The position numbers and the translations under genes were made by a program. The notes beneath the pieces are model-generated. The model did not search any database. It had not been told where the DNA came from and saw nothing but the letters and a program-made list of their open reading frames with translations. Below, in pieces: positions 6,816 through 24,000 of a DNA stretch of 24,000 bases (positions are counted from its first letter, which is position 1; every line of letters begins with the position of its first letter). Source of the stretch: Syntrophomonadaceae bacterium (GTDB lineage Bacteria; Bacillota; Syntrophomonadia; Syntrophomonadales; Syntrophomonadaceae). The stretch is taken from contig CAXXWF010000001.1 of NCBI GenBank assembly GCA_963665865.2, forward strand, positions 3,299,077 to 3,323,076. Reading direction: 5' to 3'.

Positions 6816-8732
6816 CTAAGGCCTAACATTATTCAAATTAACATTCGCGTTCATATACGCGCCTATGGCGTCGGCTATCGCCTGGGAGGCCAGATCTCTG
6901 AACTGCTGCTGCTGCAGCAGCGCTTCCTCGGTCGGATTGCTGATAAAAGCCAGTTCAACCAGGGCTGATGGCATCACAGATTCCCTCAGTACCGACAGGT
7001 TACTCTGTTTTACGCCGCGGTCTGCCCGTCCCAAACTGGCCACCAGAGACTGTTGTAGTCTAAGTGCCAGATTGTAGCGTTCATCCTTTTGCAAATAGAG
7101 CCCCGGATTTTCCAGCGGAAAATAGCAGTAAGTCTCAGTTCCATAAGGGGCGGAACTGGTACTGGCATTGCAATGTACTGAAACAAATACAGACGCATTA
7201 TAAAGGTTAGCGATGTTGCTTCTATCCATCAGGGACACATTCGTATCGTCTGAGCGTGTATATACCACTTTAATACCCTTAGCGGTAAGTAACTGACCAG
7301 CTTGCAGAACGACAGGCAGATTCACATCTTTTTCGGCCAGGTAAGCACCACTGGCTCCCGGGTCGCTCCCCCCATGCCCGGCATCGAGTACCACAATGGG
7401 CACACGGGGCTGGATTTCACTCTGATCAATAAATAATATATTTAGCCCTGTACCGTCACCATTAGGACCTATCGAAAACTTGGCTGCTTTAGTAGTAGTT
7501 ATGGTCAAAACTGTACCAGTCTGTCCTTGAGGCTGTAAAACCATGCTGCTGATGAGAGGACTGTTGAAATTGTAATTGGCTGACGCCGAACCAACCAGAG
7601 CATTGGTAAACACTACCTCCAGACGATTGCTGGCAGTAGAGGATGTATATTGCATAGAGGTAACTGTACTTATAGTGATATTTTCACCACTGCTGCCAAA
7701 GGTCTTGCGGCTCACGTCATAAATATAGTTGGGGATAATTAAGACCTCTCTTTTCCCGTCATTCTCGGTTGCGGTTGTATACTGCACCCCGCTGGGAAGC
7801 TGTATGTTCACTACGGCGCTGTCGCCCTGGTTGCTGCCCGAGGCGTTAAGCACGGCTGCCCCCAGGTATTCCTGCAGGCTGCTGGTGCCTTGCATCTGCC
7901 GGTTGGCAAACACGTAGCTGACCTGGTTCGTAGTTTTATTGATAGTCTTGTCCAGCTTAACCGCTGATTCCATCATTATACGCACCCCGTCGGCGGTTCG
8001 CTGAGAAGAGAGAGTTACCCCCTCCAATACTTGCACGGGTAAAGGGTTAGGGTCCACGGCGGCGGCGGGGCTCTTCATATTAACTGTATAAGCGGCCTCA
8101 TCCCAGGTTACCGTGCCGCCCAGGGCTTCCCCTATAAAACGCAGGGGAGCCAGAGTGCGGTCGTTGACAGTCTTAGCTGGAACATCCAGGGGCCATGCCT
8201 GGCCATTAACGGTTGGAGAAGTGGAACCTATGGTCAATACCACCGTGGTGCTGCCGCGGGTCGCGGTAACCGTTTGGGTGGCATTGTTCCAATCCACCTG
8301 GGCCCCCATAGCCTCAAAAATAGCCCGCAGGGGAACCAGCGTGCGACCGTTTTCGACAATAGGCGGGACTTCAAACTGCATCTGTTGCCCGTCCAGTATT
8401 ACTATTGGCGTCTTGGCCGCAGAGGGGGTGGTTGGTTTCGCTTGGGCAACGCTCAACAGAGATTGGTTTACCCAGCCCACTGTTTTCCCATACTGAATCT
8501 GATACCATTCCCCGCTCTGGGAGATAATGGTCAATGTGGTGTTTTTATAGAGGGTGCCGGTTACGGCATACTGAGTCCCCGCCCCGGCGCGGATATTGAC
8601 GACGCTGCCGGTCACTACTCCAGTAGCCGCGGCAGCTTGATCAGGTAAAGGCGAGAATAGAAGAGATATGTATAGAGAGACCGTTACCGCTAATAGAAAC
8701 AATAAATTCTTCGTTTTCATCATTTTGAACAT
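6816..8732 (-). CDS. N-acetylmuramoyl-L-alanine amidase (Amidase_3) with N-terminal SH3-like and copper-amine-oxidase-N-like stalk domains
   Basis: 638 aa with a signal peptide. SH3b-like segment GVVTGSVVNIRAGAGTQYAVTGTLYKNTTLTIISQSGEWYQIQYGKTVGWV. Two stalk repeats of the type NGRTLVPLRAIFEAMGAQVDWNNATQTVT. C-terminal Amidase_3 core IVVLDAGHGGSDPGASG...VSVHCNA...VELAFISNPTEE. It sits 39 nt upstream of the S8 gene on the same strand, so the two are probably one operon. Confidence 0.88.
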   Translation of the reverse strand: MFKMMKTKNLLFLLAVTVSLYISLLFSPLPDQAAAATGVVTGSVVNIRAGAGTQYAVTGTLYKNTTLTIISQSGEWYQIQYGKTVGWVNQSLLSVAQAKPTTPSAAKTPIVILDGQQMQFEVPPIVENGRTLVPLRAIFEAMGAQVDWNNATQTVTATRGSTTVVLTIGSTSPTVNGQAWPLDVPAKTVNDRTLAPLRFIGEALGGTVTWDEAAYTVNMKSPAAAVDPNPLPVQVLEGVTLSSQRTADGVRIMMESAVKLDKTINKTTNQVSYVFANRQMQGTSSLQEYLGAAVLNASGSNQGDSAVVNIQLPSGVQYTTATENDGKREVLIIPNYIYDVSRKTFGSSGENITISTVTSMQYTSSTASNRLEVVFTNALVGSASANYNFNSPLISSMVLQPQGQTGTVLTITTTKAAKFSIGPNGDGTGLNILFIDQSEIQPRVPIVVLDAGHGGSDPGASGAYLAEKDVNLPVVLQAGQLLTAKGIKVVYTRSDDTNVSLMDRSNIANLYNASVFVSVHCNASTSSAPYGTETYCYFPLENPGLYLQKDERYNLALRLQQSLVASLGRADRGVKQSNLSVLRESVMPSALVELAFISNPTEEALLQQQQFRDLASQAIADAIGAYMNANVNLNNVRP

Positions 8733-9085: not shown

Positions 9086-10105
9086 ATGGCTATATTAGTT
9101 ACCGGCGGAATAGGATATATAGGCAGTCATACCTGCGTGGAACTTCTTAATGCAGGTTATGAGATTATAGTCTGCGATAACTTTTCCAACTCTAAACCCG
9201 AGGTAATCAACCAAATAAAACAGATCACTGGCAGGGATTTTCTTTTTTTTGAAGCGGATATTCTTGATCGCTGTGCCCTGGAACAGTTATTCGCTGATAA
9301 TCCCATAGATGCCGTTGTGCATTTTGCAGGCCTTAAAGCAGTAGGCGAATCAGTCGCTAAACCTTTGCTCTATTATCACAATAACGTGGCAGGTTCCCTG
9401 ATACTCTTCCAGACCATGGCCCAGTTCGGGGTTAAACATCTAGTCTTCAGCTCCTCCGCCACCGTTTACGGCGATCCTGCCAGCGTACCTATTACTGAAG
9501 ATTTTTCCCTGGCTGCCACCAATCCCTATGGGCAGACTAAACTGGTTATCGAAAACATCCTGCGCGACCTGTACTTCTCTGACCAGAGTTGGAGTATTGC
9601 CCTGCTCAGATATTTTAACCCCATTGGAGCTCACCAGAGCGGCCTCATTGGAGAAGACCCCAATGGTATTCCTAACAACCTGATGCCCTACATAACGCGG
9701 GTAGCCGCTGGCCAGCTGGAAGTCCTCAATATATTTGGCAATGACTATCCCACCCTGGATGGAACCGGGGTGCGGGATTATATCCATGTTGTCGACCTTA
9801 GTCTGGGACATATTAAAGCCCTGCAAAAAATCATGTCCAGCAACGGGGTATTCACCTACAACCTAGGCACCGGCCAGGGTTACAGCGTACTCCAGGTCAT
9901 CTCGACTTTCGAACAGGCCACTGGGCAAAAATTGAACTGGCGGATGGCTCCTCGCCGTTCCGGAGATATAGCCCAATGCTATGCTGATCCGTCCCTGGCG
10001 AAAACTGAGCTGGGGTGGGAAGCCCACCGTAGCCTAACTGAAATGTGTGCTGATTCCTGGGAGTTTGCCCGGAGGGAGGCAAGTGAGGCACGGGGCCGGT
10101 TCTAG
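9086..10105 (+). CDS. galE: UDP-glucose 4-epimerase
   Basis: 339 aa. Rossmann motif MAILVTGGIGYIGSHTCVELL. Also SSSATVYG, the YGQTK catalytic YxxxK, LRYFNPIGAH and DGTGVRDYIHVVDL. GGAGG RBS upstream of the ATG. Confidence 0.95.
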   Translation: MAILVTGGIGYIGSHTCVELLNAGYEIIVCDNFSNSKPEVINQIKQITGRDFLFFEADILDRCALEQLFADNPIDAVVHFAGLKAVGESVAKPLLYYHNNVAGSLILFQTMAQFGVKHLVFSSSATVYGDPASVPITEDFSLAATNPYGQTKLVIENILRDLYFSDQSWSIALLRYFNPIGAHQSGLIGEDPNGIPNNLMPYITRVAAGQLEVLNIFGNDYPTLDGTGVRDYIHVVDLSLGHIKALQKIMSSNGVFTYNLGTGQGYSVLQVISTFEQATGQKLNWRMAPRRSGDIAQCYADPSLAKTELGWEAHRSLTEMCADSWEFARREASEARGRF

Positions 10106-14076: not shown

Positions 14077-14106
14077 TTTACATTGAATTAGAGAGTATAG
14101 TATAAT
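14077..14106 (+). promoter_or_regulatory. Sigma-A-type promoter driving the c-di-GMP-I riboswitch transcript
   Basis: TTTACA (14077-14082), 18 nt, TATAAT (14101-14106). The aptamer begins about 25 nt downstream. Confidence 0.55.
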
Positions 14107-14130
14107 AATGGAAAATATAATTGTATAAAT

Positions 14131-14228
14131 GGCCTTGAAGGGCAAACTTGTCGAAAGATAAGGACGCAAAACCAAAGGGTCTAAGTCGTTTTTGACGATA
14201 TGACAGCCGGGTTGCTAGAGATCATGCC
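14131..14228 (+). promoter_or_regulatory. c-di-GMP-I (GEMM-I) riboswitch aptamer
   Basis: The sequence is GAAGGGCAAACUUGUCGAAAGAUAAGGACGCAAAACCAAAGGGUCUAAGUCG...CGAUAUGACAGCCGGGUUGC. It carries the class-I signatures GGGCAAAC, a GAAA-capped hairpin (UUGUC/GAUAA) and GGACGCAAA(A/G)CC. It also has a tetraloop-receptor-like UCUAAG...UAUGA and GCCGGGUUGC. These align by eye with the V. cholerae Vc2 aptamer as I recall it. Confidence 0.85.
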
Positions 14229-14237
14229 TTAAGTAGG

Positions 14238-14285
14238 AATCTCCTTAAAAGGTATGGTTATGAGATTTTAAGGAGGTTTTTTGTT
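14238..14285 (+). terminator. Expression-platform hairpin of the c-di-GMP-I riboswitch (terminator-like; also sequesters the RBS)
   Basis: AAUCUCCUUAAAA (14238-14250) pairs with UUUUAAGGAGGUU (14266-14278): 13 bp including one G-U. UUUUGUUG follows. The right arm contains the AAGGAGG RBS of the GTG start at 14286. Confidence 0.6.
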
Positions 14286-14564
14286 GTGGATTTTAGCTGT
14301 ATTGTTCCCAGAATCATAAAGGAAAGTGTAGCCGTATTCAAGGACACAAGCATAGAAGAAATTAAGAATATTCTAATCTTAAAAGAAGAATTAATAGCAG
14401 TCGGGTATAATCCCAATGAGGTCAATTACATGATTGCAACCTTTAGTAATAACGTGGATATTGCTAAGCTTAATTCTAAACAGCTTAAGAAAACTGAAGA
14501 ACGATTAAAAGAACAGCTGTCTATCGCCAGAGAATGTATAGCATTCATCCGAGACCCCCAATAG
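14286..14564 (+). CDS. Hypothetical 92-aa protein, the only cargo of the c-di-GMP-I riboswitch
   Basis: GTG start 9 nt after AAGGAGG. Predicted to be soluble, helical and charged (…LKKTEERLKEQLSIARECIAFIRDPQ). I recognise no family. A terminator overlaps its stop codon. Confidence 0.6.
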   Translation: MDFSCIVPRIIKESVAVFKDTSIEEIKNILILKEELIAVGYNPNEVNYMIATFSNNVDIAKLNSKQLKKTEERLKEQLSIARECIAFIRDPQ

Positions 14565-14604: not shown

Positions 14605-14838
14605 TTATTTAATGATTATATTCTGAATAGATTCAGCTTTGGCCGTTCCCGTTGCGTTGTACTTGGTCAGTACAAAGCGGTATGTACCTTTAGTGCTGCC
14701 CGCAGGAAGTGTAAGATTTGCTGCTCCTCCCGAAATGCTCACCGGTTGGTTCGCCTGGCCAGAAACATTTGCATAGGAGATGCCATATTTTTGTTGGAGG
14801 GTGGATTGCACGTTCCCGGTACCCAGAATTTGAATGGG
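14605..14838 (-). other. Out-of-frame C-terminal continuation (about 77 codons) of the GLUG-repeat gene
   Basis: The frame of track ORF 14605..14811 stays open upstream to 14868. From 14838 it reads PIQILGTGNVQSTLQQKYGISYANVSGQ...TYRFVLTKYNATGTAKAESIQNIIIK. This joins naturally to ...AAAVSVPIT of the 1010-aa ORF if the C4 run (plus-strand GGGG, 14836-14839) is read as C5. The annotated tail of the 1010-aa ORF (PFKFWVPGTCNPPSNKNMASPMQMFLARRTNR) looks like out-of-frame sequence. Confidence 0.7.
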
Positions 14839-17771
14839 GTTATGGGAACTGACACAGCTGCAGCTGAGGCATCAAAAAACCGTGTTCCGGCAACGGCCCG
14901 GATACCGTATTCTGGAGGGGCTGCAAGTGTAATGGACGCAGTCCCTGCTGCCAGCAGATTATCGTTTCTAGGGTTCGCAGGATAAGAACTGGCGTAGGCT
15001 TTGACCTGCAAAGTGTAGGTGCCGGCTGTCAATGGAACCGCACAGCCGCTCATGTCAATACTTATGGTAGTTCCGCTGAGGACATTGGCCGTCAGAAATG
15101 TAGAGGGATAACTGCCGGTAATGACGGTGCCGTTGACTATTGTACCAATAGGCAGATTAACCGTAGATCCCGACTGCTGCAGATAAATTTCATAGAAATA
15201 GGACTTGCCATCAGTCTTGTAATCATAACCCATGGCGGTTGTTTTGGATAAAGCCGCAGTGCAGGAATCTGTTCCACTGGTAGTAGTAAGAGAATAAGCA
15301 TTCTTCCCGGCAACGGTCACCGTTGGCACCGTGCCGGTAGCAGTTCCTCCCGCAATCAGGAATTCGATATTGCTGGTCCCGGCCGCAATCCCGGCCGCTG
15401 TGCGCGAAAAGTCAAAAATGAATACATATTGTTTGGTTGAGCCTGCCGCTGCGGTCTGGCTGGGATAGTTTGTGGCAGTGGTCCCCATCTGTATGAATTG
15501 ATTCAGCATTATGCTGCCGGTCAGATCCGCAGTCAGATTCTTATAGTAATATACTCCGTCCACCAGCATGATAACTGTAGTATGGGCAGGTAGAGTTACT
15601 GCCGTGGTTCCCTGTTTGAGTCCGATAGTCTGGGTTTCAAGGGCACAGGTTGCGATGTAAGTTCCGGAATAAGAAACTGAAAATGCGCTGTCGGCAGTGA
15701 TAGCCGCCGAAGTGGCAGCTCCTTCCAAAGATGTGGGAGTATAATATTTACCTCCTGCTATTTTAGTACTTGCAAACTGCACGACCGGAGGCACAGATGT
15801 TCCAATCACGGGAGGATCACTTGAACCTCCACCGACTTGAATCCAAACGTTGTTTCCTTCAGGATTGGGGATATTCGTCCCAATGCCATTTAATAAATCC
15901 TTGATTACCGTCCAAGGTATTTCACCAACCGGCACAGCCCCATCATTGGTTAATTTGTCACCGGTTCCGGTTCCCTGCGCAGCATTGTCATAATAGTTGT
16001 TCCAGGCATTCGTTGGGGATAACGTTCCCTGATATTGACCGATAATGCCGCCTACATAATTATTATGTCCGGTTATCTCGCCGGTACTTAAATTGTTACT
16101 TATGGTTGACCCAGCTTGAGACCAATCGCCGCCGCCTGCTATGCCGCCTACAGCACTGCTCCCATGAATATCTCCAGAATTAGAGTTATTGCTTATGGTA
16201 TTATTGCTGCCGGCATATCCGACCACACCACCTATATTTTGTTGCCATCCGTCCATATTCACGCTGTTTACATTACCGGTGTTGCTGCATACTTTTACCG
16301 TACCGTCTGTATATCCAGCCACACCGCCCACGCAAGATTTCCCCGTTATATTTCCGGAAGAAGCGCAATTACTGATTTCGCTGTTGGTACCGGCGTATCC
16401 GGCCACACCACCTACATATTCTTGCCAATCTTTCACATTCTCGCTGTTTACATTCCCACTATTGGTGCAAACCGTTATCTCACCGTTCGTATATCCAGCC
16501 ACGCCGCCCACATACTGTTTTCCCGTTATAGTTCCGGAAGAAGATGAATTACTGACTTCGCTGCCCGAATAAGCATAGCCGACCACACCACCCACATAAT
16601 TCTCGCCGCCGGTTACCGTACACGTGACCTCACACCCTGTTACGGCCGCGCTAATCGTGGGCAGGACCGGTGTTTGGTTGTCGATCTTGTATATGCTTCC
16701 AACCACCCCGCCCACATAAAACTTTCCCGTTATAGTTCCGGCAACCGTGCAATTGGCCATTGTACTGTCAGCACCGGCATATCCAGCTATTCCGCCTACA
16801 TAATTCTCGGTTCCGGTTAAGGTTAAGCTTACGTCACACCCGGTTATGTTCCCTTCTGTGTATCCAGCCACACCGGCCACGTAAAATTTTCCAGTTACAA
16901 TTCCTGAAACCGTACAGTTCTCTATTTCACTGTTAGGGCCGGCATATCCCGCCATACCGCCTACATAGTTTTCAGTTACGGTTACTGTAGAACTTAGGTG
17001 ACACCCTTTTATCTTCCCGTTGGTATAGGCAGCCACACCGCCCACGTAAAATTTTCCAGTTACAATTCCTGAAACCGTGCAGTTTTCTATGTCACTGTTC
17101 GTACCGCCATATCCAGCCACACCTCCAGCATAATTCTCGACTGCGGTTACGGGTAAACTTACGCTGCAACCGGTTATGCTCCCGTCGGTGTAGCCGACTA
17201 TCCCTCCCGCATAATATCCTCCTCGCACACTGCCTGAAACACTTAAATTTTTAATCACACTTCCATTGGCAGCATATGCAAACAATCCACAGTAGGAATG
17301 ATAATTTGTTTCATTAATATACAGACCGATGATTTTTTTGCTGTTGCCATCGAAATTGCCCTGGAAGGTTTTGGTTGAGTCGCTGCCAATGCAGGTAAAC
17401 TTTCTTGGTGAAGAGGACACAAAGGTTCCGTTCGTGTTCATGTTATTAAGTAGAATGTCATCTGTAAGCTTAAAATACGTATTTTGATAGTTTAAGCCGC
17501 CGTTAACTCTTTGAGCCAAATAGGCAAGTTCCTTACCGTTGCTGATTAAATAGGGATCCGCCTGAGTTCCTGTTCCACCGGCATAGGCTGTTGACACGGA
17601 ACCATCCCATAGAGCGCTGGTGGCATCAACATACCCAGGCATTGAAAAAATAAATGGCAGCAACATTGCGCATAGCGATACGATAGCCATGCACCGCCTT
17701 AGTCTGAGGCGGCGGCGTTTTTGCCTAAGTATATTTCTGATTTTGGTTTCGAAGTTAGAAGGTTGGATCAT
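14739..17771 (-). CDS. Large secreted GLUG-motif repeat protein (putative adhesin/cargo), frameshifted near the 3' end
   Basis: 1010 aa as called. N-terminal signal/TM RRCMAIVSLCAMLLPFIFSMPGYVDA. The segment GTGTQADPYLISNGKELAYLAQRVNGGLNYQNTYFKLTDDILL is typical of N-termini of GLUG-containing proteins. At least 12 repeats of the type ENYVGGVAGYAG.NSEI.NC.VSG.ITGK.YVGGVAGYT.G follow. The C-terminal third is beta-rich. Its ATG overlaps the upstream stop (ATGA at 17768-17771). No LPXTG or SLH anchor is visible. Confidence 0.8.
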   Translation of the reverse strand: MIQPSNFETKIRNILRQKRRRLRLRRCMAIVSLCAMLLPFIFSMPGYVDATSALWDGSVSTAYAGGTGTQADPYLISNGKELAYLAQRVNGGLNYQNTYFKLTDDILLNNMNTNGTFVSSSPRKFTCIGSDSTKTFQGNFDGNSKKIIGLYINETNYHSYCGLFAYAANGSVIKNLSVSGSVRGGYYAGGIVGYTDGSITGCSVSLPVTAVENYAGGVAGYGGTNSDIENCTVSGIVTGKFYVGGVAAYTNGKIKGCHLSSTVTVTENYVGGMAGYAGPNSEIENCTVSGIVTGKFYVAGVAGYTEGNITGCDVSLTLTGTENYVGGIAGYAGADSTMANCTVAGTITGKFYVGGVVGSIYKIDNQTPVLPTISAAVTGCEVTCTVTGGENYVGGVVGYAYSGSEVSNSSSSGTITGKQYVGGVAGYTNGEITVCTNSGNVNSENVKDWQEYVGGVAGYAGTNSEISNCASSGNITGKSCVGGVAGYTDGTVKVCSNTGNVNSVNMDGWQQNIGGVVGYAGSNNTISNNSNSGDIHGSSAVGGIAGGGDWSQAGSTISNNLSTGEITGHNNYVGGIIGQYQGTLSPTNAWNNYYDNAAQGTGTGDKLTNDGAVPVGEIPWTVIKDLLNGIGTNIPNPEGNNVWIQVGGGSSDPPVIGTSVPPVVQFASTKIAGGKYYTPTSLEGAATSAAITADSAFSVSYSGTYIATCALETQTIGLKQGTTAVTLPAHTTVIMLVDGVYYYKNLTADLTGSIMLNQFIQMGTTATNYPSQTAAAGSTKQYVFIFDFSRTAAGIAAGTSNIEFLIAGGTATGTVPTVTVAGKNAYSLTTTSGTDSCTAALSKTTAMGYDYKTDGKSYFYEIYLQQSGSTVNLPIGTIVNGTVITGSYPSTFLTANVLSGTTISIDMSGCAVPLTAGTYTLQVKAYASSYPANPRNDNLLAAGTASITLAAPPEYGIRAVAGTRFFDASAAAVSVPITPFKFWVPGTCNPPSNKNMASPMQMFLARRTNR
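16094..17264. repeat. Intragenic tandem DNA repeats encoding the GLUG units (periods of about 165 and 180 bp)
   Basis: 16878-16934 and 17043-17099 differ at 3 of 57 nt (CACGTAAAATTTTCCAGTTACAATTCCTGAAACCGT.CAGTT.TCTAT.TCACTGTT), a 165-bp offset. 16261-16320 and 16441-16500 are clearly related at a 180-bp offset. Confidence 0.8.
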
Positions 17772-18574
17772 GTCACTGTAACTCCGGTATAGTTTGCCGC
17801 AGGGCTATCCTTGAAAAAGATCAGCTCGTAAACTGCCGCCTTATTAACAGTAGTCATTATGGTTCTGGTGGTAAGGTTGATGCTGTTGGCGTTTATCACT
17901 ATCGGGTTGGTCATGTCAGGGGATGCTCCAATCGGCCAGCTGATGGTAACCGCTCTGGTCAGTGCAGCGCTGCTGTCGTTCTCCAAGGTTACGGTCAGCC
18001 TGGCCAGGGGTGCACCTGCATTGGAATCGATTGCATAAGCAACCGCCGGCTTTATAACAAAATTCCCTTTCAGGGTTTTTGCGTAGGGTGAGGTGGAGAC
18101 CGCAGTCACCGTAACCGACAAAGGACTATTTTTGTCAGCAGGTGCTGGAATCGTAAGATTTATGGTGGCTTCATTGCCCGGCGAGCCGCCTGCTGCGATG
18201 GTTCCGCTGGCACTGCCGCCTGAGGCAGTTGCAGTTACAGAATAGGATATGCTGCTGTCCGATATGTTCAGCGTACTGTCATAATTCCTTAGTTTGAAGG
18301 TTATAGTCGAGGCAGACTGCAAGTCATTGCAGAGATAATACGTGGGTATAGCTGATAAATTCGACCCCAGCAAATCGCTGGTGAAATAAAATTCAGCATC
18401 TGCGGTGGCGGTGTAGTTGTTCATAACCTGATCGTAAATATAGCTGGCCAAAACTGCCCCCGGATAAGAAATAATTAAAATAAAGGCTAGGATGAATACA
18501 GACATCTGCCTTTTCGTTCGTTTTTGATGCAAATTATTATATATGGGTGTAAACTTATTTTTCATCGTTAACAC
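17768..18574 (-). CDS. Secreted/membrane-anchored beta-rich protein of the fibre operon (possible minor subunit)
   Basis: 268 aa. N-terminal TM VFILAFILIISYPGAVLASYIY, followed by ...ATADAEFYFTSDLL, which resembles the FxFTD/AYFSD part of SipW-cognate signals. The protein is Ser/Thr/Ala-rich. RBS GAGAAGGTG. It starts 9 nt after the upstream gene. Confidence 0.55.
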   Translation of the reverse strand: MLTMKNKFTPIYNNLHQKRTKRQMSVFILAFILIISYPGAVLASYIYDQVMNNYTATADAEFYFTSDLLGSNLSAIPTYYLCNDLQSASTITFKLRNYDSTLNISDSSISYSVTATASGGSASGTIAAGGSPGNEATINLTIPAPADKNSPLSVTVTAVSTSPYAKTLKGNFVIKPAVAYAIDSNAGAPLARLTVTLENDSSAALTRAVTISWPIGASPDMTNPIVINANSINLTTRTIMTTVNKAAVYELIFFKDSPAANYTGVTVT

Positions 18575-18583
18575 CTTCTCTGT

Positions 18584-19123
18584 TTATAATTGAACGGCGC
18601 GCAGCCGAAGCTGTAAGTAATCTATTTCATTTTTGTATGTATAACTGTTAATGTTTGCCGGCCAAGCCATGGTAAGTATAAAAGAGCTGGTGGTTGCTAT
18701 ATTCGCAGTAAATTCCTGAGCCGCACTAACATATTGATAACTAGCAGGATGAGTGAGAGCAACCGGGGTACCTGCTTTGGTCAGAGAGTACTGCAGAGGA
18801 AGGTTGCCAGTAGTGTCCAGCTCCAGGGTATAGCTTTGACTATATCCACTTGCATTTCCACTGCCATCCTGGTTATTTACCGAGATGGTAATGGTTTTAA
18901 TGTCCCCGGGTTTCATACCCTCAATATTAATCGTACTGGCCTGCTGGTTCATAATCCAGGTGGAAAACACAACGGCAGGTATGGCAGTATTTTCTGGTCC
19001 CGTATTTTGAATTACACTGCTGAAACGAGAAAATGAAATACCAGTAATTATAAGGGATACCAAGAAGAGGTAGATTAAATACATATGCCATTTGGCCGTC
19101 TTTTTTTCGACAGGAGCTTGCAT
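18584..19123 (-). CDS. Small TasA/camelysin-like paralogue (179 aa)
   Basis: TM YLIYLFLVSLIITGISFSRFSSV. Motifs occur in the same order as the other paralogues: MKPGDIKTITISVNN, LPLQYSL, and a terminal strand LQLRLRAVQL. RBS AGGAAAGGGG. Confidence 0.6.
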   Translation of the reverse strand: MQAPVEKKTAKWHMYLIYLFLVSLIITGISFSRFSSVIQNTGPENTAIPAVVFSTWIMNQQASTINIEGMKPGDIKTITISVNNQDGSGNASGYSQSYTLELDTTGNLPLQYSLTKAGTPVALTHPASYQYVSAAQEFTANIATTSSFILTMAWPANINSYTYKNEIDYLQLRLRAVQL

Positions 19124-19156
19124 TTTCTAACCCCTTTCCTGTGGCTGATGCTAATG

Positions 19157-20134
19157 TTAATTAGGTTGCATCTGCTCTCCGCTTATACGGAAAATTACCT
19201 GGACTAATGGTTTGGTATTTAAAGCATGGGCGGCAAAGGTATCATAATCATCATAGGCTCTTAAAAGAGAAGTATTACAGGCCTCCATAGCAGCATTCGC
19301 AGCCGCAGCCAGGCTGTTATAATAGCCAAAATCACCATCCGGCCATGTGCCATCCGGCTGCGGACTGCCATGCACGGTCAAATACGTATCGACTGCATTG
19401 AAAGCGGCTATACTCTGATCCTGCAAACCACCCGGAGCGTAATATACATTATAAGCTGCCTGGTAATAAGGAAGATACTTGCCACTGCCTATATTGGTAT
19501 CAGGATTCGGTGTTACCGTAGCAACGCCCGTGTCATTGATATAGAATGAGGTATTCCATTGCCATTGAATTGTGACGGTAACCTCATCAGTGCTGCCTGG
19601 TGAAAATGTCGGCTTTCCATCTGTTAAATCAAAAATGCTAAAATAGCCTTCCCCATCGCGGCTGGTATCCTGCAGCCTGAACCAATTGGTCTGAAATACA
19701 ATGGGTGGGCTGTCGGCTGCGCCCGAGTTCATGGCAGCACTCACTTTGAAAATAAAAGGTGCGTAAACATCTTTACCGCTATGAGTTGCAATAACTGCCG
19801 TATTCCCCGCCGAAGTAAGCTTAATTAATTCATTCGCATTCATTTCAATATTATAGGCAACGGCTACATCAGACCTGCCGCTCTTCAAGGAGAAGCTTTT
19901 CTCTCCCGAGTCCATTGGAGCAACAGTCTTGCCGTCAAACAAATTAAAGGTAAACCCTTTGTTATAATACTGCGTATCGGTTTCACCTTTGGCACTGAAA
20001 TTCCACTTAGCAATCAGGGCTGGGTCCGAGCCACTATATTCACTAGTATAACTTGCCGAAGTAGATGGGAAAATGGAAAAGCTAACCAGTGCCGCAACTA
20101 TCAGCAGTTGTAAACCTATTTTGAAAAGCTTCAC
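19157..20134 (-). CDS. TasA/camelysin-like paralogue (325 aa, with an extra insertion)
   Basis: GTG start and signal peptide MKLFKIGLQLLIVAALVSFSIFPSTSA. The post-signal segment SYTSEYSGSDPALIAKWNFSAKGE is closely related to the 217-aa protein (KYTSVYAGQDTALVAKWSLAIKEG). Other motifs: VAPMDSGEKSFSL, TVTIQWQWN, and the terminal VQVIFRISGEQ. Confidence 0.65.
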   Translation of the reverse strand: MKLFKIGLQLLIVAALVSFSIFPSTSASYTSEYSGSDPALIAKWNFSAKGETDTQYYNKGFTFNLFDGKTVAPMDSGEKSFSLKSGRSDVAVAYNIEMNANELIKLTSAGNTAVIATHSGKDVYAPFIFKVSAAMNSGAADSPPIVFQTNWFRLQDTSRDGEGYFSIFDLTDGKPTFSPGSTDEVTVTIQWQWNTSFYINDTGVATVTPNPDTNIGSGKYLPYYQAAYNVYYAPGGLQDQSIAAFNAVDTYLTVHGSPQPDGTWPDGDFGYYNSLAAAANAAMEACNTSLLRAYDDYDTFAAHALNTKPLVQVIFRISGEQMQPN

Positions 20135-20221
20135 TGGTCATCATCTCCCTTCTCCAACTATAAGTATTGCCGCCCCTGCCGTGATGCAAATTATTCAATC
20201 CCAAGCAGGATTCTCGCAATA

Positions 20222-20743
20222 TTAGTTTCTCTTGCGCTTTATTTCCTGATAAAGCTCTTCACCGTAAATGCAAAGGACTGCTATGATTAGCAACACTATC
20301 ATGCCAGTCGGGTTTTTAATAAATAAGATGGCCAACCCTATTTTCGGGATCCTAAAAAGCACTTTGCCTATAAATTGTTCAGCTGCCACTGTATCATCGG
20401 CAACATTGTTATTATCACCCTTAAGGATAAAACCGCCATTTTCTTCCCCAACAATGCGATGCGTGTAAGTCGTAGTGCCGACCATATAAGTAGCAATATC
20501 GCCCAGCTTATACTTTTGGGGAGCTTGCTCACGGATTACCACCACATCCCCGGGCATTATCGCTGGCTGCATAGAGCCGGACATAACAATGAGCGGTGCC
20601 ATACCCAAAAACTTGGGCACGGGGTTGTGGGTTACTGCCTTATTGATACCCAGGTAGAGATTACTTAATATCACCAGACCCAAAAATCCGACCAACCCAT
20701 ACTTCAAAAAGTTGATCAGTATTTTTTTCCACTTGTTTTGCAA
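20222..20743 (-). CDS. Signal peptidase I, SipW/ER-archaeal type (second copy, short form)
   Basis: 173 aa, TTG start with AAGGATGGG upstream. N-terminal TM, Ser box MSGSMQPAIMPGDVVVIRE, His box YTHRIVG, and LKGDNNNVADD. A C-terminal TM is followed by only a short tail (EELYQEIKRKRN). Confidence 0.85.
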   Translation of the reverse strand: MQNKWKKILINFLKYGLVGFLGLVILSNLYLGINKAVTHNPVPKFLGMAPLIVMSGSMQPAIMPGDVVVIREQAPQKYKLGDIATYMVGTTTYTHRIVGEENGGFILKGDNNNVADDTVAAEQFIGKVLFRIPKIGLAILFIKNPTGMIVLLIIAVLCIYGEELYQEIKRKRN

Positions 20744-20757
20744 GAAATCCCATCCTT

Positions 20758-21975
20758 CTATTTTCTCTGGGCCGAAACTATGATTGAAAGCGTACAGACT
20801 ACTTCATCAGCATGATTAGCGAAGCTATTATCGTTGATGCCGCCATCATCCCAGAACCATTCCAGGGTATATCCAGTCTTCATCGAATCGCTCATCACTA
20901 ACGGTACTGAGGAATCAGCAGTTACCGCCCGGATCTCTGCGGTTGTATGCCAGTTGCTGTCGCCATTTACATACGTATTGGTATTGTTATTCTGCAAACG
21001 ATATTTCATAGGGATGTTTAACGAGTTGTTGGTTTCTACCAGATCGATATCGTAATTAACCGCAAAGGGGTTGGCAGTATTATTCACCGTAAATTTATAC
21101 ACCCCGGTCATACCTGGAGCAATATGTTTGCCGCTCCCGAAAATGTTGATGTCGGTAGCTGGACTGGGAGCTTGATGGAAGTCATTACTATCACCCGTAC
21201 TATATACGGTAAGTGCCCAAGCTTGTGGCTGAGGGGGGATTCCACCACCGCCGCCACCGCCTCCCCCAAGAATATCAGGAGGAGGGTTGGGGATAACTGG
21301 CTGGGCTGGGGGCTCCGGAGTCAAAGGAATGCCAGGCTGCGGTTGCTCCCCCGGGTTATTACGTTCCAGCACATTAACCTGAGGACCTATAGTCAGGTGA
21401 CCATTAGGGAGTCCTGACCCGTCCTGTTCTATTTCCAGGACTACTTCCAGGGTTTTTACATCTACCCCTATCTCCAGTACGAAAGTATCCACCGATACTT
21501 GCACCAGAAGCGTATCGGCAATCTCCAGGTTGCGGTTTATGGTCACCTTGCACGAGGCTAACACTTGCCCGCTCTGGCTCAGCACGCTTATCGTGTGATC
21601 CCCATCCTCGACATTTTGAAATATAAAGTAGCCGTCACGGTCGGTATAGGTAGTCCTCGGCGCACTGCGCAGCTCCACCAGCCCAAAGGCGTATGGCGTA
21701 CCATCTTTGTAGACGACCCGGCCTTTAATAGTTATCTGCTTCTCAACCGGCACGATAACCTTATGAGGAGGGTAAATAAAGTTTCTAATTCTGTCCAGGA
21801 AGGGTACTCCTCGGTCTCCATCCCCAACTATGGGAAGGGTGGAAGATATGATAAAATCCGTCTGCCCGGTGCTGCTATCGCGGATTACACCGTAAACAGA
21901 CACGGCTATATATACAACAATCATGGTTATAATGGCAAGCAGTATCAGGTTCTTGCGGTTTTGCGCAATGTCCAC
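20758..21975 (-). CDS. Membrane-anchored chimeric protein: N-terminal TM, CarboxypepD_reg-like beta-sandwich, Pro/Gly linker and C-terminal TasA-like domain
   Basis: 405 aa, GTG start with GGAGGTG upstream. TM LILLAIITMIVVYIAVSVYGVI. ITIKGRVVYKDGTPYAFGLVELRSAPRTTYTDRDGYFIFQNVEDGDHTISV is carboxypeptidase-regulatory-like. The linker reads PGEQPQPGIPLTPEPPAQPVIPNPPPDILGGGGGGGGGIPPQPQ. The C-terminal domain has HIAPGMTGVYKFTVNN, IPMKYRL, YTLEWFWDDGG and LSIIVSAQ, in the same order as the 217-aa paralogue. Confidence 0.65.
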   Translation of the reverse strand: MDIAQNRKNLILLAIITMIVVYIAVSVYGVIRDSSTGQTDFIISSTLPIVGDGDRGVPFLDRIRNFIYPPHKVIVPVEKQITIKGRVVYKDGTPYAFGLVELRSAPRTTYTDRDGYFIFQNVEDGDHTISVLSQSGQVLASCKVTINRNLEIADTLLVQVSVDTFVLEIGVDVKTLEVVLEIEQDGSGLPNGHLTIGPQVNVLERNNPGEQPQPGIPLTPEPPAQPVIPNPPPDILGGGGGGGGGIPPQPQAWALTVYSTGDSNDFHQAPSPATDINIFGSGKHIAPGMTGVYKFTVNNTANPFAVNYDIDLVETNNSLNIPMKYRLQNNNTNTYVNGDSNWHTTAEIRAVTADSSVPLVMSDSMKTGYTLEWFWDDGGINDNSFANHADEVVCTLSIIVSAQRK

Positions 21976-21998
21976 GCTATCACCTCCGGTACGGCTTC

Positions 21999-22052
21999 CT
22001 TAAAGATAGCGCATTCGGTATGCGCTATCTTTAAGAGAGCCGCAGCTCTCTT
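21999..22052 (-). terminator. Two strong adjacent stem-loops immediately downstream of the 217-aa TasA-like gene (intra-operon attenuator or mRNA-stabilising element)
   Basis: 21999-22014 (CTTAAAGATAGCGCAT) is the perfect complement of 22020-22035: a 16-bp stem with a 5-nt loop. 22033-22040 (AAGAGAGC) pairs with 22045-22052 (GCTCTCTT): an 8-bp stem with a 4-nt loop. No clear U tract follows on the transcribed strand. Confidence 0.5.
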
Positions 22053-22068
22053 ATATGGTTAGATTAGC

Positions 22069-22722
22069 TTATATTGTTGCTGGTGCTACCTGTGTGGCTG
22101 TAACCTTAATCAGCAGATTATAGGTTGTGCGAGAACCTCCACCCGCGGAAGCAACGCCAAGTGCAGTATCGGTTGTATCGGTTGCGCCAGCTGTTGCAGT
22201 AGTTCCATCAAAAGCCCATCTCCAGTAAACGGTATGACTAGTGTTTCCGCCTGCTTCGGCAAGCTGAATACCCAGGCCGTTTAATGCAGTTTTCAATGCG
22301 GCATCACCATTCAATATAACGGCTGTCCCATCCGTAAAAGGCTTATCAATGCTGTACTCCATAGGGACATTAGCGCCTGTTTTAGTAATATCAAAGGTAA
22401 TATCCGCCGCAACGTCACTGTTGTTAGTTAGATTCAGAACAAAGTTGTCACTAATTCCAGGAGCAATGATTTTTGGAGTAGTTGTTAGGATATTTGTATT
22501 AAATGCGTGTGAAAATAAGTCAAGGTTCGCTACAGCCGGATCAATGGCAAAATCATGGGTACCCTCTTTAATAGCCAAGCTCCATTTGGCCACCAGGGCC
22601 GTATCCTGCCCAGCGTACACACTGGTGTACTTAGCGAAGGTTCCCGAAAGCATAACTGTTGAAATCAGACAGACTACTAAAAGCAGTCCCCCAAGTCTAA
22701 AAGTCTTTCCTGTAATATTCAT
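22069..22722 (-). CDS. TasA/BsaA/camelysin-like secreted protein (217 aa), candidate major fibre subunit
   Basis: The signal peptide ends in SGTFAKYTS, in register with the SipW-cognate signal pattern GTxAxF(S/T)D (TasA: GGGTWAAFND). Motifs: IIAPGISDNFVLNLTNN, VPMEYSI, HTVYWRWAFDG, and the terminal strand YNLLIKVTATQV (compare TasA ...FSFEATQ). It is the first structural gene after sipW and is followed by strong hairpins. RBS AAGGGGGA. Confidence 0.7.
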   Translation of the reverse strand: MNITGKTFRLGGLLLVVCLISTVMLSGTFAKYTSVYAGQDTALVAKWSLAIKEGTHDFAIDPAVANLDLFSHAFNTNILTTTPKIIAPGISDNFVLNLTNNSDVAADITFDITKTGANVPMEYSIDKPFTDGTAVILNGDAALKTALNGLGIQLAEAGGNTSHTVYWRWAFDGTTATAGATDTTDTALGVASAGGGSRTTYNLLIKVTATQVAPATI

Positions 22723-22797
22723 ATTTTATCCCCCTTTATTTAATTCTCCTTATTTTTGCTTCGGTCGACGTGCGTTAGCTGCCGACCACCTCCCTTA

Positions 22798-22817
22798 CCG
22801 TAATTTCCGTAATTTCC
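22798..22817. repeat. Tandem 9-bp direct repeat in the sipW to subunit-gene spacer
   Basis: CGTAATTTC occurs twice (22799-22807 and 22808-16). On the minus strand this reads GGAAATTACGGAAATTACGG. It lies within the 140-nt intergenic gap. Confidence 0.6.
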
Positions 22818-22862
22818 TTTCTTCTATCAAACCGTACTGCTAAATATCTATATATCAAGTTG

Positions 22863-23519
22863 TTAGCTTGGGAAGCTATCTTCCGTTGCTTCAGACTTGG
22901 TATTTTCCTTTTGGGCAGCTTTTAAAGCTGCCAGCTCAGCCTCGAGCTCGGCTTCACGACCGCCTTTTCTCTTACTGCGCCTATTGCGCGCTACCACATC
23001 ATAAACTATAAACAGGCAAAGCGGGGTTACCACAAATATCAGCATGCCTATAGGAGTCTGCAGGAACATGGCAAACCTGCCTACGCCGCCAGCCCGCCCC
23101 AGGTATATGCCCTCTAATGTATCAGCCTTTACCGCGGCGGCGTCAGCACCGGTATTGGCATCCCCTTTGGTTAAGAATGATATGTTGCCATTATCATTTA
23201 ATATATCGGTTACTCTATGTGTTATTACAGTATTCTTATCGGATCTAAAAGTGATAATATCGTTCTTAGCAACCTTATCTGCAGTAATCTCCTTGGTCAG
23301 CACAATATCTCCGGTCAAGATGGTTGGCTCCATTGAGCCAGATAAGACAATAAAGGGCTTATAGCCCATAAAGTCTGGTACCTTATCCGGGTAGAGGTAA
23401 GACTTAACAATCATGGTTCCATTAACGACAATAATCAAGGTTAGAAAAATACATACTGCAATACCAACGATGTTTAAAGTCTTTCTAAAAGTTGTGCTTT
23501 CGGATGTCCCATCTGCCAT
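22863..23519 (-). CDS. Signal peptidase I, SipW/ER-archaeal type (first copy, long form with charged C-terminal tail)
   Basis: 218 aa with GGAGGCGG RBS. N-terminal TM, Ser box LSGSMEPTILTGDIVLTKE, His box ITHRVTDI, and TKGDANTGAD. After a C-terminal TM comes a 45-aa cytoplasmic tail, RNRRSKRKGGREAELEAELAALKAAQKENTKSEATEDSFPS. Confidence 0.88.
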   Translation of the reverse strand: MADGTSESTTFRKTLNIVGIAVCIFLTLIIVVNGTMIVKSYLYPDKVPDFMGYKPFIVLSGSMEPTILTGDIVLTKEITADKVAKNDIITFRSDKNTVITHRVTDILNDNGNISFLTKGDANTGADAAAVKADTLEGIYLGRAGGVGRFAMFLQTPIGMLIFVVTPLCLFIVYDVVARNRRSKRKGGREAELEAELAALKAAQKENTKSEATEDSFPS

Positions 23520-23552
23520 TTAGTCCGCCTCCATATTTTGCAAATTAAGCCC

Positions 23553-23579
23553 AAAAAGCCACCACATAAATGTAGTGGC
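23553..23579 (-). terminator. Intrinsic terminator forming the expression platform of the c-di-GMP-II riboswitch
   Basis: On the minus strand: GCCACUACA (23579-23571), loop UUUA, UGUGGUGGC (23566-23558), then UUUUU (23557-23553). The stem is 9 bp with one G-U. The left arm includes the CCAC that forms the aptamer P1 3' strand. Confidence 0.75.
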
Positions 23580-23643
23580 CGGTTGCGTCTCAAGCTACTG
23601 TAGGTCAGACGCCCAATTTACGCCCACAGATCATCGCTTCCAC
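23575..23643 (-). promoter_or_regulatory. c-di-GMP-II riboswitch aptamer in the operon leader
   Basis: The minus strand reads GUGGAAGCGAUGAUCUGUGGGCGUAAAUUGGGCGUCUGACCUACAGUAGCUUGAGACGCAACCGGCCAC. I recall the C. acetobutylicum class-II aptamer as ...GGAAACAAUGAUGAAUGGGUUUAAAUUGGGCACUUGAC...GUGCAACCGACCGUGC. The two share GGAA.C.AUGAU, UGGG..UAAAUUGGGC, a closing helix (GCGUCU/AGACGC here) and GCAACCG.CC. Confidence 0.82.
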
Positions 23644-23671
23644 ATTAATATCCTATTATTCTACCTAATAT

Positions 23672-23700
23672 ATAATGCCTTGCTTTGCAAAATATGTCAA
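23672..23700 (-). promoter_or_regulatory. Sigma-A-type promoter of the sipW/TasA-like/GLUG operon
   Basis: On the minus strand: TTGACA (23700-23695), 17 nt, CATTAT (23677-23672). Overlapping TATATA/TATATT alternatives exist. The aptamer starts about 25 nt downstream. Confidence 0.55.
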
Positions 23701-23772: not shown

Positions 23773-24000
23773 TTATTGTAAACATTTTTTCAGCCTATCC
23801 CTCTCTACCGGGCAGAGTAAATAGCCATATGCCCCGATTTCATGTGCATCCAATGCATAATTTCTATTATCGGAAATAAAAACAATCCGAATGTCGGGGT
23901 TCGTCTTTATCGCCCGGGCGGTTTTAAGCCCCGGTATTTGATCGTGTCCCAAACGAATAAAGCACCAATGAGGCGGGAACTTCCAGGTTCGTTTAATAAA
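23773..24000 (-). CDS. Receiver (REC) domain protein, C-terminal 75 codons only; N-terminus lies outside the window
   Basis: Absent from the ORF track (edge-truncated). My translation is FIKRTWKFPPHWCFIRLGHDQIPGLKTARAIKTNPDIRIVFISDNRNYALDAHEIGAYGYLLCPVERDRLKKCLQ*. This matches the beta3-alpha5 part of CheY-like receivers (xxDxxMPGxxGLELxxxIK...IIFxTAxxxYALxAxxxGAxxYLLKP). Confidence 0.6.
   Translation of the reverse strand, partial: FIKRTWKFPPHWCFIRLGHDQIPGLKTARAIKTNPDIRIVFISDNRNYALDAHEIGAYGYLLCPVERDRLKKCLQ

Follow-up and report, generated by a model that had tools for sequence, protein, structure and literature searches.

Gene organization of the locus

A stretch of 24,000 nucleotides from a Syntrophomonadaceae bacterium (contig CAXXWF010000001.1, positions 3,299,077 to 3,323,076; hereafter the window) was analyzed. 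Between positions 14605 and 23700 it carries eight genes that look like a candidate operon for a secreted surface fibre, preceded by a leader that would respond to cyclic diguanylate (c-di-GMP). All long reading frames within this region are on the minus strand, as revealed by an open reading frame (ORF) listing. In operon order, the genes code for a SipW-type signal peptidase of 218 amino acids (sip218, 22863-23519), a putative major fibre subunit of 217 amino acids (p217, 22069-22722), a membrane-anchored chimera of 405 amino acids (p405, 20758-21975), a second SipW-type peptidase of 173 amino acids (sip173, 20222-20743), a subunit paralogue of 325 amino acids with a large insertion (p325, 19157-20134), a paralogue of 179 amino acids whose family is the closest to TasA (p179, 18584-19123), a remote paralogue of 268 amino acids (p268, 17768-18574), and a giant protein with GLUG repeats, which is frameshifted (14605-17771). 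The intergenic gaps are, in the same order, 140, 93, 14, 87, 33 and 9 nt, and the last two genes overlap by 4 nt (ATGA, 17768-17771). The eight frames lie where an original prediction, made from the sequence alone, had placed them.

The same prediction had proposed that the genes share one promoter and one leader. A promoter-like site, an aptamer and a terminator do precede sip218, and since no terminator-like site was found in any intergenic gap of the operon, one transcript across the eight genes is plausible. No sortase was found among the eight genes, and no LPx[TSA]G motif in any operon protein, by Pfam/NCBIfam searches and a motif scan, so that the cluster lacks the marks of a sortase-assembled pilus.

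Conservation of the cluster in Clostridia

The p217 family is large. It gave 147 matches, all of them unnamed proteins, in a database clustered at 90%, and a search of 1.84 billion cluster representatives (50% identity) yielded 6,358 at E<=1e-3. A scan of species-representative genomes revealed the gene order to be conserved in 79 loci of the Clostridia, as a conserved gene neighbourhood would have it. The recurring order is peptidase, subunit(s), p405-type gene, peptidase, subunit(s), p268-type gene and giant gene. The loci from other genomes that were used for comparison are numbered L001 to L081, L001 and L002 being close relatives of the window locus, and 79 of the 81 have a SipW gene. Among the hosts are Pelotomaculum, Syntrophomonas, Desulfotomaculaceae, 'Ca. 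Formimonas warabiya', Desulfosporosinus, Sporobacter termitidis and Ruthenibacterium, together with many Oscillospiraceae, Lachnospiraceae and gut Clostridia; they include syntrophic oxidisers of propionate and butyrate. Some loci carry tandem copies of the major-subunit gene, and in many the fetched DNA holds the core (peptidase, subunit, anchor, peptidase, subunit) with no p268-type or giant gene.

The leader and its aptamers

The promoter-like site (TTGACA-17-CATTAT, 23672-23700, minus strand) matches 10 of the 12 consensus positions and immediately precedes the aptamer; the region as a whole shows no enrichment of such sites. An Rfam scan found in the operon leader (23568-23650, minus strand) an 83-nt aptamer of the c-di-GMP-II type, matching RF01786 over the full model (1-84) with 44.4 bits and an E of 1.9e-8, where the gathering score is 53.5. 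The class II aptamers of related loci scored 35.5-48.8 bits with the same model, and the window aptamer is ∼90% identical to the aptamers upstream of the L004 and L017 operons. Directly after the aptamer, folding predicts an intrinsic terminator (23553-23580, minus strand), a hairpin of 10 bp (GGCCACUACA / UGUGGUGGCU) followed by a U-run, with -22.1 kcal/mol and a z-score of -3.45. Its 5′ arm, GGCCACUACA, is also the 3′ strand of the closing helix of the aptamer. Since the closing helix and the terminator hairpin would pair in a mutually exclusive manner, we infer that the leader is a c-di-GMP ON switch, in which ligand binding blocks termination. In Clostridioides difficile, all four class II riboswitches (4/4) are ON switches, and three of them govern known or putative adhesins (PMC6200980).

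Using Rfam and two purpose-built covariance models on the operon strand, we found aptamers in 18 of 22 sequences (the window and L001-L021, which are mostly environmental); our own class II model detected 15 class II-type elements across the loci. Class II leaders precede the operons of the window, L001, L002, L004, L015, L016 (four in tandem) and L017 (two), and class I leaders those of L003, L006, L007, L008, L010 (two), L012, L013, L020 and L021. Downstream of the p325-type gene lie two class II aptamers in L018 and one class I aptamer in L014. The terminator 5′ arm coincides with the aptamer 3′ end in four folded class I leaders (L003, L006, L012 and L021) and in the class II leader of L017. 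Among L022-L081, mainly gut-derived, only 4 of 60 loci carry an aptamer. That two unrelated aptamer classes, alike in ligand and in design, have been exchanged before the same operon is strong evidence that its induction by c-di-GMP is under selection. The c-di-GMP control that had been proposed for the window gains in strength from these orthologous leaders of either class with their ON-type terminator overlap.

A second aptamer pair is present before the p179 gene in L003 and L008, which suggests that the p179/p268/giant module may be dosed separately. The tandem and internal riboswitch sites are located at L016 4742-5471, L017 113-392, L010 2536-2785, L003 14284-14594, L008 14470-14712 and L018 3454-3729.

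The sole riboswitch of the window that scores above its threshold is another one, a class I element with 74.9 bits at 14131-14219 on the plus strand. It was rejected as the switch of the operon, being on the opposite strand and preceding a convergent 92-amino acid ORF. It belongs to a separate c-di-GMP unit (14077-14564, plus strand) that runs towards the 3′ end of the fibre operon, as the corresponding unit does in L001. The unit has a promoter-like TTTACA-18-TATAAT at 14077-14106 and a hairpin at ∼14235-14281 that buries an AAGGAGG ribosome-binding site and ends in U6; its 92-amino acid ORF matches no known family. Small proteins under class I control, recently described in C. difficile, are reportedly membrane-associated and look different from the product of this ORF.

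Two groups of SipW-type signal peptidases

With TIGR02228, the model for signal peptidase I of the archaeal/SipW type, both peptidases score above the cut-off of 51.85 bits (sip218 with 97.5 bits and sip173 with 85.1 bits), and sip173 also matches PF00717. The Ser box (S-M-x-P) reads SGSMEP in sip218 and SGSMQP in sip173, and the His box THRV and THRI, respectively; the latter stands in place of the LepB-type Lys. A GD(A/N)N box is present in both (GDAN in sip218). The assignment of the two enzymes to the SipW/archaeal type is therefore supported. With the Bacillus SipW equivalog model NF046067 they reached 110.2 and 59.8 bits, against a cut-off of 190, hence by this score they are relatives and not equivalogs.

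The two enzymes fall into two orthologous groups, 'position 1' (sip218) and 'position 2' (sip173). In the 48 loci in which both genes are complete, the nearest neighbour from another locus was encoded at the same position in 96 of 96 cases, and neither group has lost the catalytic Ser-Met or His in these loci.

Paralogous subunits

The motif order that had been noted in four of the proteins is found at the following places: APG87, VPMEYSI119, WRW167 and ATQ209 in p217; APG286, IPMKYRL321, WFW373 and SAQ401 in the C-terminal part of p405; APM72, WQW191 and GEQ319 in p325; and KPG71, LPLQYSL108, AWP153 and AVQ176 in p179. Profiles were built by iterated search from each protein over the ORFs of related loci. 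Seeded from any of p217, p325, p179 and p405, the profile recovered the other three, with E values of 1e-6 to 1e-45, hence the shared order exceeds chance and the four are paralogues. The p217 profile matched p325 (3e-45), residues 274-398 of p405 (6e-16) and p179 (3e-6), and the p179 profile matched p217 (1e-29) as well as p325 and p405. By BLASTP, p325 is similar to the N-terminus of p217 (E 2e-9). The hhalign probabilities of 100% among the iterated p217, p325 and p405 C-terminal alignments were discounted, because these alignments share most of their sequences. Protein p268 is a remote paralogue: its profile matched p179 (4e-6), and its alignment matched that of the p179 family, which is a largely separate sequence set, with a probability of 97.5% (hhalign, E 7e-12).

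The secreted paralogues (p217, p325, p179 and p268) carry variants of one signal-end motif of the [TS]-F-[AS]-[KR]-[YF]-[ST] type. The segments already pointed out in three of these proteins were found as GTFAKYTS from residue 27 of p217, STSASYTS from residue 24 of p325 and ISFSRFSS from residue 29 of p179; to these we add the variant AVLASYIY at residue 40 of p268, whose orthologues show a G..[LF]A[SK]Y motif. Counted over the loci, 37 of 42 p217-type, 41 of 63 p325-type and 3 of 70 p405-type ORFs have the motif in its strict form. An alignment of 50 p217-family members shows no variation at T28 and A30, as the -3/-1 rule would have it; these residues are followed by an extension, G38-x-D40-T-A-L-V-A-K-W47, that is invariant or nearly so (D40, T41, A42, A45 and W47 are invariant). 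The extension of p325 is of the same type (STSASYTS...DPALIAKW), and p179 has a distinct signal and extension (SFSRFSS...NTGPEN...FSTW). AlphaFold2 (AF2) models of p217 and p179 reached a mean predicted local distance difference test score (pLDDT) of 77.6 and 75.4, respectively, with a confident beta-sandwich body in both and values below 50 for residues 32-46 of p217 and 30-46 of p179. In the monomer models the N-terminal extensions of both proteins are thus predicted to be disordered.

The p217 body varies strongly between close relatives. Compared with L001, p217 of the window is 44% identical and the seven other proteins are 96.5-99.3% identical, with the first 48 residues of p217 conserved. 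The combination of a variable body with a conserved N-terminus is typical of an exposed shaft or polymer subunit, and the exchange of the body looks like cassette-type replacement or diversifying selection of such a subunit. At the DNA level, the p217 gene body alone has lost its similarity to L001, which is otherwise 98% identical (window 22057-22576 versus L001 10147-10812). The L001 allele codes for 269 amino acids, and p217 of L002 is 68% identical to that of the window, versus 89-94% for the other genes.

None of p217, p325, p179 and p268 matches a Pfam or NCBIfam family. With E values up to 10, the only recurrent match of the 50 p217-family members in these two databases was a weak one of DUF4179 to the transmembrane (TM) region, and the p217 profile found nothing meaningful among the sequences of the PDB. 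The p217-family profile also collected P0301, a protein of 5,067 amino acids, through 32 weak stretches that by their look are Calx-beta-type repeats. We rejected P0301 as a family member and regard this as Calx-beta-like cross-talk, the p179 and TasA profiles not matching it; the case shows that the strand pattern with the PG...NN hairpin cross-matches generic beta-sandwich repeats. The Asn-Glu-Lys triad of C. perfringens BsaA was also looked for. The domain body of the 50 aligned p217-family members has no invariant Lys or Glu, and so a BsaA-type isopeptide lock is not indicated by this alignment-only, weak test.

The membrane-anchored protein p405

Protein p405 consists of an N-terminal TM helix, a CarboxypepD_reg domain (residues 82-140), a Pro/Gly-rich linker (residues ∼207-250) and a subunit-like domain that starts at W253. 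The CarboxypepD_reg match (PF13620) is marginal, with 32.6 bits against a cut-off of 32.3. The linker ends in G9-IPPQPQ, and homology to the subunits begins directly after it, the subunit hidden Markov models (HMMs) matching residues 253-404. Neither the N-terminal extension segment nor a SipW-type signal motif is present in p405. Among its orthologues, 58 of 65 have a strongly hydrophobic N-terminal TM helix, and the motif is as rare as given above (3 of 70). The iterated p217 HMM could not be used to place the domain boundary in the orthologues, as it had absorbed p405-type sequences.

Because the membrane anchor looks uncleaved and the N-terminal extension is missing, p405 would accept a strand and not donate one. 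The description of p405 as TapA-like, which the original prediction had put forward, is for the same reason a poor fit, TapA being secreted and strand-donating.

The p268-giant gene pair

The giant protein has an ordinary AxA signal, an N-terminal region of the GLUG beta-helix type and a conserved C-terminal module of ∼400 amino acids. Nine GLUG stretches were recognized (PF07581, 126.3 bits, cut-off 20.5), and the intact orthologue of L001 scored 118.7 bits. The frame of ∼1055 amino acids assumed earlier does not hold for the window: relative to L001 and L002, where the frame comprises 1054 amino acids, two extra C at 14836-14839 split the protein into 1010 + 68 amino acids. This could be an assembly error, real decay or phase variation of an adhesin. 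Split p268-type or giant genes were also seen in L002, L008 and L013.

In every locus that has both genes, the p268-type gene is directly followed by the giant gene. GLUG giants are limited to the environmental clade, and the gut loci have giants of 1,500-2,000 amino acids with other beta-helix-like repeats. The N-terminal repeats of the two kinds are unrelated (GLUG versus beta-helix-like repeats with a weak Flg_new match), whereas the C-terminal ∼400 amino acids align: residues 638-1035 of the L001 giant match residues 1465-1853 of the L022 giant with an E of 9e-8 over 434 columns, and three further giants match with 1e-5 to 4e-4. The giants are on this sequence evidence composed of a variable passenger and a conserved C-terminal module, for which we found no Pfam family. 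The loci with this module are L001 (16898-18262), L022 (13185-18824), L055, L064 and L080.

Flanking genes

Upstream of the operon lies the 3′ end of a response-regulator receiver gene (23776-24000, minus strand), recognized by its receiver-domain match. In L001 (4147-8970) and L002 (4153-8906) the upstream genes code for a 7TMR-DISM hybrid histidine kinase of 1,027 amino acids and a response regulator (Trans_reg_C, BTAD). A second layer of control by such upstream receiver, kinase and regulator genes is possible. On the other side, the window is rich in cell-envelope genes between 1522 and 13968, among them an extracytoplasmic function (ECF) sigma/anti-sigma pair (1522-3098), a subtilase-like surface protein of 1,193 amino acids (3195-6776, minus strand), an SH3-amidase (6816-8732, minus strand), GalE, VanZ and a CNNM/CorC-type protein. 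In L023, the fibre operon of a 'Candidatus Scatosoma' metagenome-assembled genome, two 6S-RNA-like matches ∼5 kb apart flank the operon (4640-4843 and 9845-10048, both on the minus strand), with 46.0 and 45.3 bits against a gathering score of 46.4.

Relation to TasA

The original prediction had taken the system to be TasA-type. The link that we found to TasA runs through the p179 family. With signal peptides included, the p179-seeded alignment matched TasA by hhalign with a probability of 90.7% and an E of 1.3e-6; three pairs of motifs fell into line, first the signal end, then the PG-x10-N hairpin and finally the A-x-Q of the last strand. An HMM of the mature p179 part only matched 102 of 112 mature TasA proteins at E<0.01 (best 1.3e-8) and 0 of 110 reversed controls, with the signal mostly in residues 10-57 of mature TasA. 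In the reverse search, p179-type ORFs came first among 4,921 ORFs scored with the TasA HMM, though not significantly. Foldseek gave TasA (5of2) the highest query TM-score for the p179 model, 0.43 over 193 columns, among the 50 matches listed. The signal end of p217 is also in register with that of TasA (SGTFA/KYTS versus GGTWA/AFND), but this covers 28 columns and is not significant. We conclude that the subunit family probably represents a very remote branch within the TasA/BsaA superfamily.

A number of results weigh against a TasA-type fibre. Of the Pfam and NCBIfam models proposed for the check, those for S26 peptidases, GLUG and CarboxypepD_reg matched, and those for TasA/camelysin and the SipW-cognate signal did not: with E values up to 10, PF12389 (TasA/CalY/camelysin, Peptidase_M73) found no operon protein and none of the 50 p217-family members, and the TIGR04088 class of signal models gave no match. 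The p217 alignment reached a probability of 1% by hhalign against an alignment of 112 TasA sequences, with only the signal ends aligned, and was negative against a single TasA sequence. Without signal peptides, the p179 comparison fell to 48% (P 1.8e-4 versus 0.09 for the reversed control). The link concerns one paralogue family, and in it mainly a segment of ∼50 residues (the donor region and the PG...N hairpin) and the last strand. For the p179 model, TasA 5of2 ranked only 28 by E-value in the Foldseek search, among generic beta-sandwiches, and for p217 Foldseek found nothing in the PDB at E<=1e-3, TasA not being among the 50 matches listed. The sub-threshold score of the leader aptamer and the frameshift in the giant gene of the window stand on the same side.

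Two other connections were considered and rejected. A reading of the paralogues as a camelysin metalloprotease was set aside, since the assignment of that family to the peptidases is considered mistaken (bioRxiv 10.1101/2024.11.04.621531), and the 'quinone-transporting filaments' of Bacillota (PMC13524794) consist of unrelated proteins.

Discussion

TasA polymerises by donor-strand exchange (PMC9674648), and TapA nucleates TasA filaments by strand complementation (PMC10151520). The archaeal bundling pili follow the same donor-strand principle (PMC9245690), and the sipW-bsaABC operon of C. perfringens produces SipW-dependent BsaA polymers (PMC7395162). A preprint of 2024/25 lists 2,172 BsaA/TasA-like proteins (only 632 of them fall into the InterPro family of camelysin), describes several BsaA/TasA paralogues per operon beside signal peptidases and proposes heteropolymers; in its model, a signal-anchored newcomer obtains a donor strand before the SipW cut (bioRxiv 10.1101/2024.11.04.621531). 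The novelty claimed for the window operon has to be limited accordingly, as TasA/BsaA operons with several paralogues are already in print. In the literature outside subscription journals, we found no description of a SipW operon under a c-di-GMP riboswitch or of two conserved SipW paralogues, and none of an anchored subunit lacking the extension or of the module shared by the giants.

The cluster resembles tapA-sipW-tasA of B. subtilis in that a SipW-type peptidase gene lies beside genes for secreted beta-sandwich subunits that carry an extension after the cleavage site. The likeness to TasA comprises the aligned PG-x10-NN hairpin and terminal A-x-Q strand, and a remote profile similarity via the p179 family. 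Unlike that of B. subtilis, the cluster has a second peptidase, four to five paralogues and a giant adhesin gene, and the TM-anchored, acceptor-type p405 where B. subtilis has the secreted, strand-donating TapA. The tasA operon of B. subtilis is under SinR/AbrB-type control, in contrast to the c-di-GMP riboswitch of the window operon. With sipW-bsaABC of C. perfringens it shares the features of a clostridial SipW operon with several TasA-superfamily paralogues and a large accessory secreted protein; a subunit of ∼23 kDa and the model in which signal-held subunits receive a donor strand and are then released by SipW are further points of likeness with BsaA. In C. perfringens, however, the accessory protein is a von Willebrand factor A (VWA) protein, only a single SipW is encoded, and temperature and a two-component system regulate the operon. 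BsaA, here compared by description only, also differs from the p217 family in that it is locked by an Asn-Glu-Lys isopeptide triad.

Likened by description only, the archaeal bundling pili and AbpX (PMC9245690; bioRxiv 10.64898/2026.01.04.697558) are chaperone-free donor-strand polymers of TasA-like subunits with a peptidase of the archaeal/endoplasmic reticulum (ER) type, but they have a single subunit, and no anchored subunit, giant adhesin or riboswitch has been described for them. In its regulation, the operon is like the pilA1 and adhesin genes of C. difficile (PMC6200980), where a class II ON aptamer upstream of surface-fibre or adhesin genes governs read-through. The class II targets of C. 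difficile differ, being a type IV pilin and sortase-anchored adhesins with no SipW/TasA-type cluster, and the window aptamer is below the gathering score. Finally, the chaperone-usher pili use an N-terminal extension that fills the groove of the next subunit, with one extension-less subunit at one end. The top Foldseek matches of the p217 model were subunits of this kind (CfaB, the PapG pilin domain, CS17 and Fim subunits), although weak, with E values above 1e-3 and TM-scores of 0.26-0.35. The window system has no chaperone, usher or outer membrane. The likeness to chaperone-usher pili is one of analogy and not of membership.

On balance, we think it fairly probable that the locus encodes a c-di-GMP-induced, SipW-processed donor-strand fibre of the TasA/BsaA type, together with a giant adhesin and an anchored subunit that accepts a strand but donates none. 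When c-di-GMP is high, the aptamer would fold, the terminator could not form, and the operon would be transcribed. The subunits would be exported by Sec and held by their signal peptides until the two peptidases cut after the invariant T-x-A, freeing the N-terminal extension (KYTS...GxDTALVAKW in p217). The freed extension would then enter the beta-sandwich of a neighbour as a donor strand, as in TasA and BsaA. The hypervariable p217, which belongs to the most abundant family, would form the shaft, with p325, p179 and p268 as minor or adaptor subunits; p325 shares the extension type of p217, and p179 and p268 have types of their own, which could set the order of assembly. Protein p405 would take the last donor strand and tie the fibre to the membrane through its wall-spanning Pro/Gly linker. 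The giant would be displayed via its conserved C-terminal module, with the GLUG region as an adhesive passenger. Its likeliest partner is p268, because the two genes are always adjacent and in the window are coupled by the ATGA overlap.

Other explanations must be weighed against this donor-strand fibre. The paralogues might be processed by SipW into a coat, a lattice or a loose matrix with no strand-exchange polymer, the giant being an independent adhesin of the same c-di-GMP regulon. In its favour, the fold matches generic beta-sandwiches, including collagen-binding and carbohydrate-binding modules, and the weak Calx-beta cross-talk of the profile marks the strand pattern as a common one. 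Yet a conserved, disordered extension right after the cleavage site is not easily explained unless it acts between molecules, and the anchored domain copy that specifically lacks the extension also points to such a role; the two dedicated peptidases are kept in 48 of 48 complete loci, and wherever both genes are present the giant gene is coupled to that of p268. We regard a coat or matrix as unlikely. A second alternative places the giant at the centre, as an adhesin exported and displayed by the small paralogues (its stalk, chaperone or adaptor) on p405 as a short-stalk membrane base. In its favour are the ATGA overlap of the p268 and giant genes and the fact that, in the environmental clade as in the gut clade, a p268-type gene is followed by a giant with the conserved module, despite differing passengers. 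But many loci show the core with no p268-type or giant gene in the fetched DNA, and the hypervariable p217 and the tandem major-subunit copies fit an abundant exposed polymer better, so that we give a dedicated display system for the giant little credence.

A spore-associated appendage or coat structure was also considered. The p179 model matches the L-type endospore appendage Ena3A (8pdz, Foldseek E 2.2e-3), endospore appendages being beta-sandwich polymers; many host lineages form spores; and TasA was first described as, and its homologues are named, 'spore coat-associated protein N'. This explanation appears very improbable to us in view of the regulation by a c-di-GMP ON switch, which matches that of the adhesin and pilus genes of C. 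difficile, the lack of sporulation genes in the operon, and the membrane-anchored subunit with its wall-spanning linker, which points to the envelope of the vegetative cell.

The donor-strand fibre can be taken a step further, to a proposal that we offer as possible and on the whole doubtful. The locus would encode a third kind of cell-anchored Gram-positive pilus, beside sortase-assembled and type IV pili, and this kind of pilus would occur widely among the Clostridia, in syntrophs as well as in Oscillospiraceae and Lachnospiraceae of the gut. Its subunits would assemble at the membrane, by TasA-type donor-strand exchange, into an ordered heteropolymer in which two specialised SipW peptidases release two classes of subunits (GTFAKYTS-type shaft subunits and SFSRFS/LASYIY-type adaptor subunits), the permanently membrane-anchored, extension-less p405 caps and anchors the base, and interchangeable giant beta-helical adhesins dock by their conserved C-terminal module. 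In environmental lineages, it would be wired to c-di-GMP via either riboswitch class.

TasA is a biofilm protein of Bacillus, and c-di-GMP is the "settle down" signal of bacteria. To our knowledge, the TasA-type fibres described to date come for the most part from the biofilms of Bacillus, from a single operon of C. perfringens and from a small number of archaea. If the fibre reading is true, a much-diverged branch of the TasA principle would be common in anaerobic Clostridia, elaborated into a multi-part machine with two peptidases of its own, an anchor and a giant adhesin. The operon is also a clear instance of two unrelated c-di-GMP riboswitch classes having replaced one another in the same place, and the system would be a natural test case for donor-strand assembly in a set order, unaided by a chaperone or an usher. 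What makes it interesting is how widely it occurs, how elaborate its set of parts is, and that two riboswitch classes attest its wiring to c-di-GMP; for the organisms that carry it the fibre would be a concrete candidate for attachment to partners or surfaces at raised c-di-GMP.

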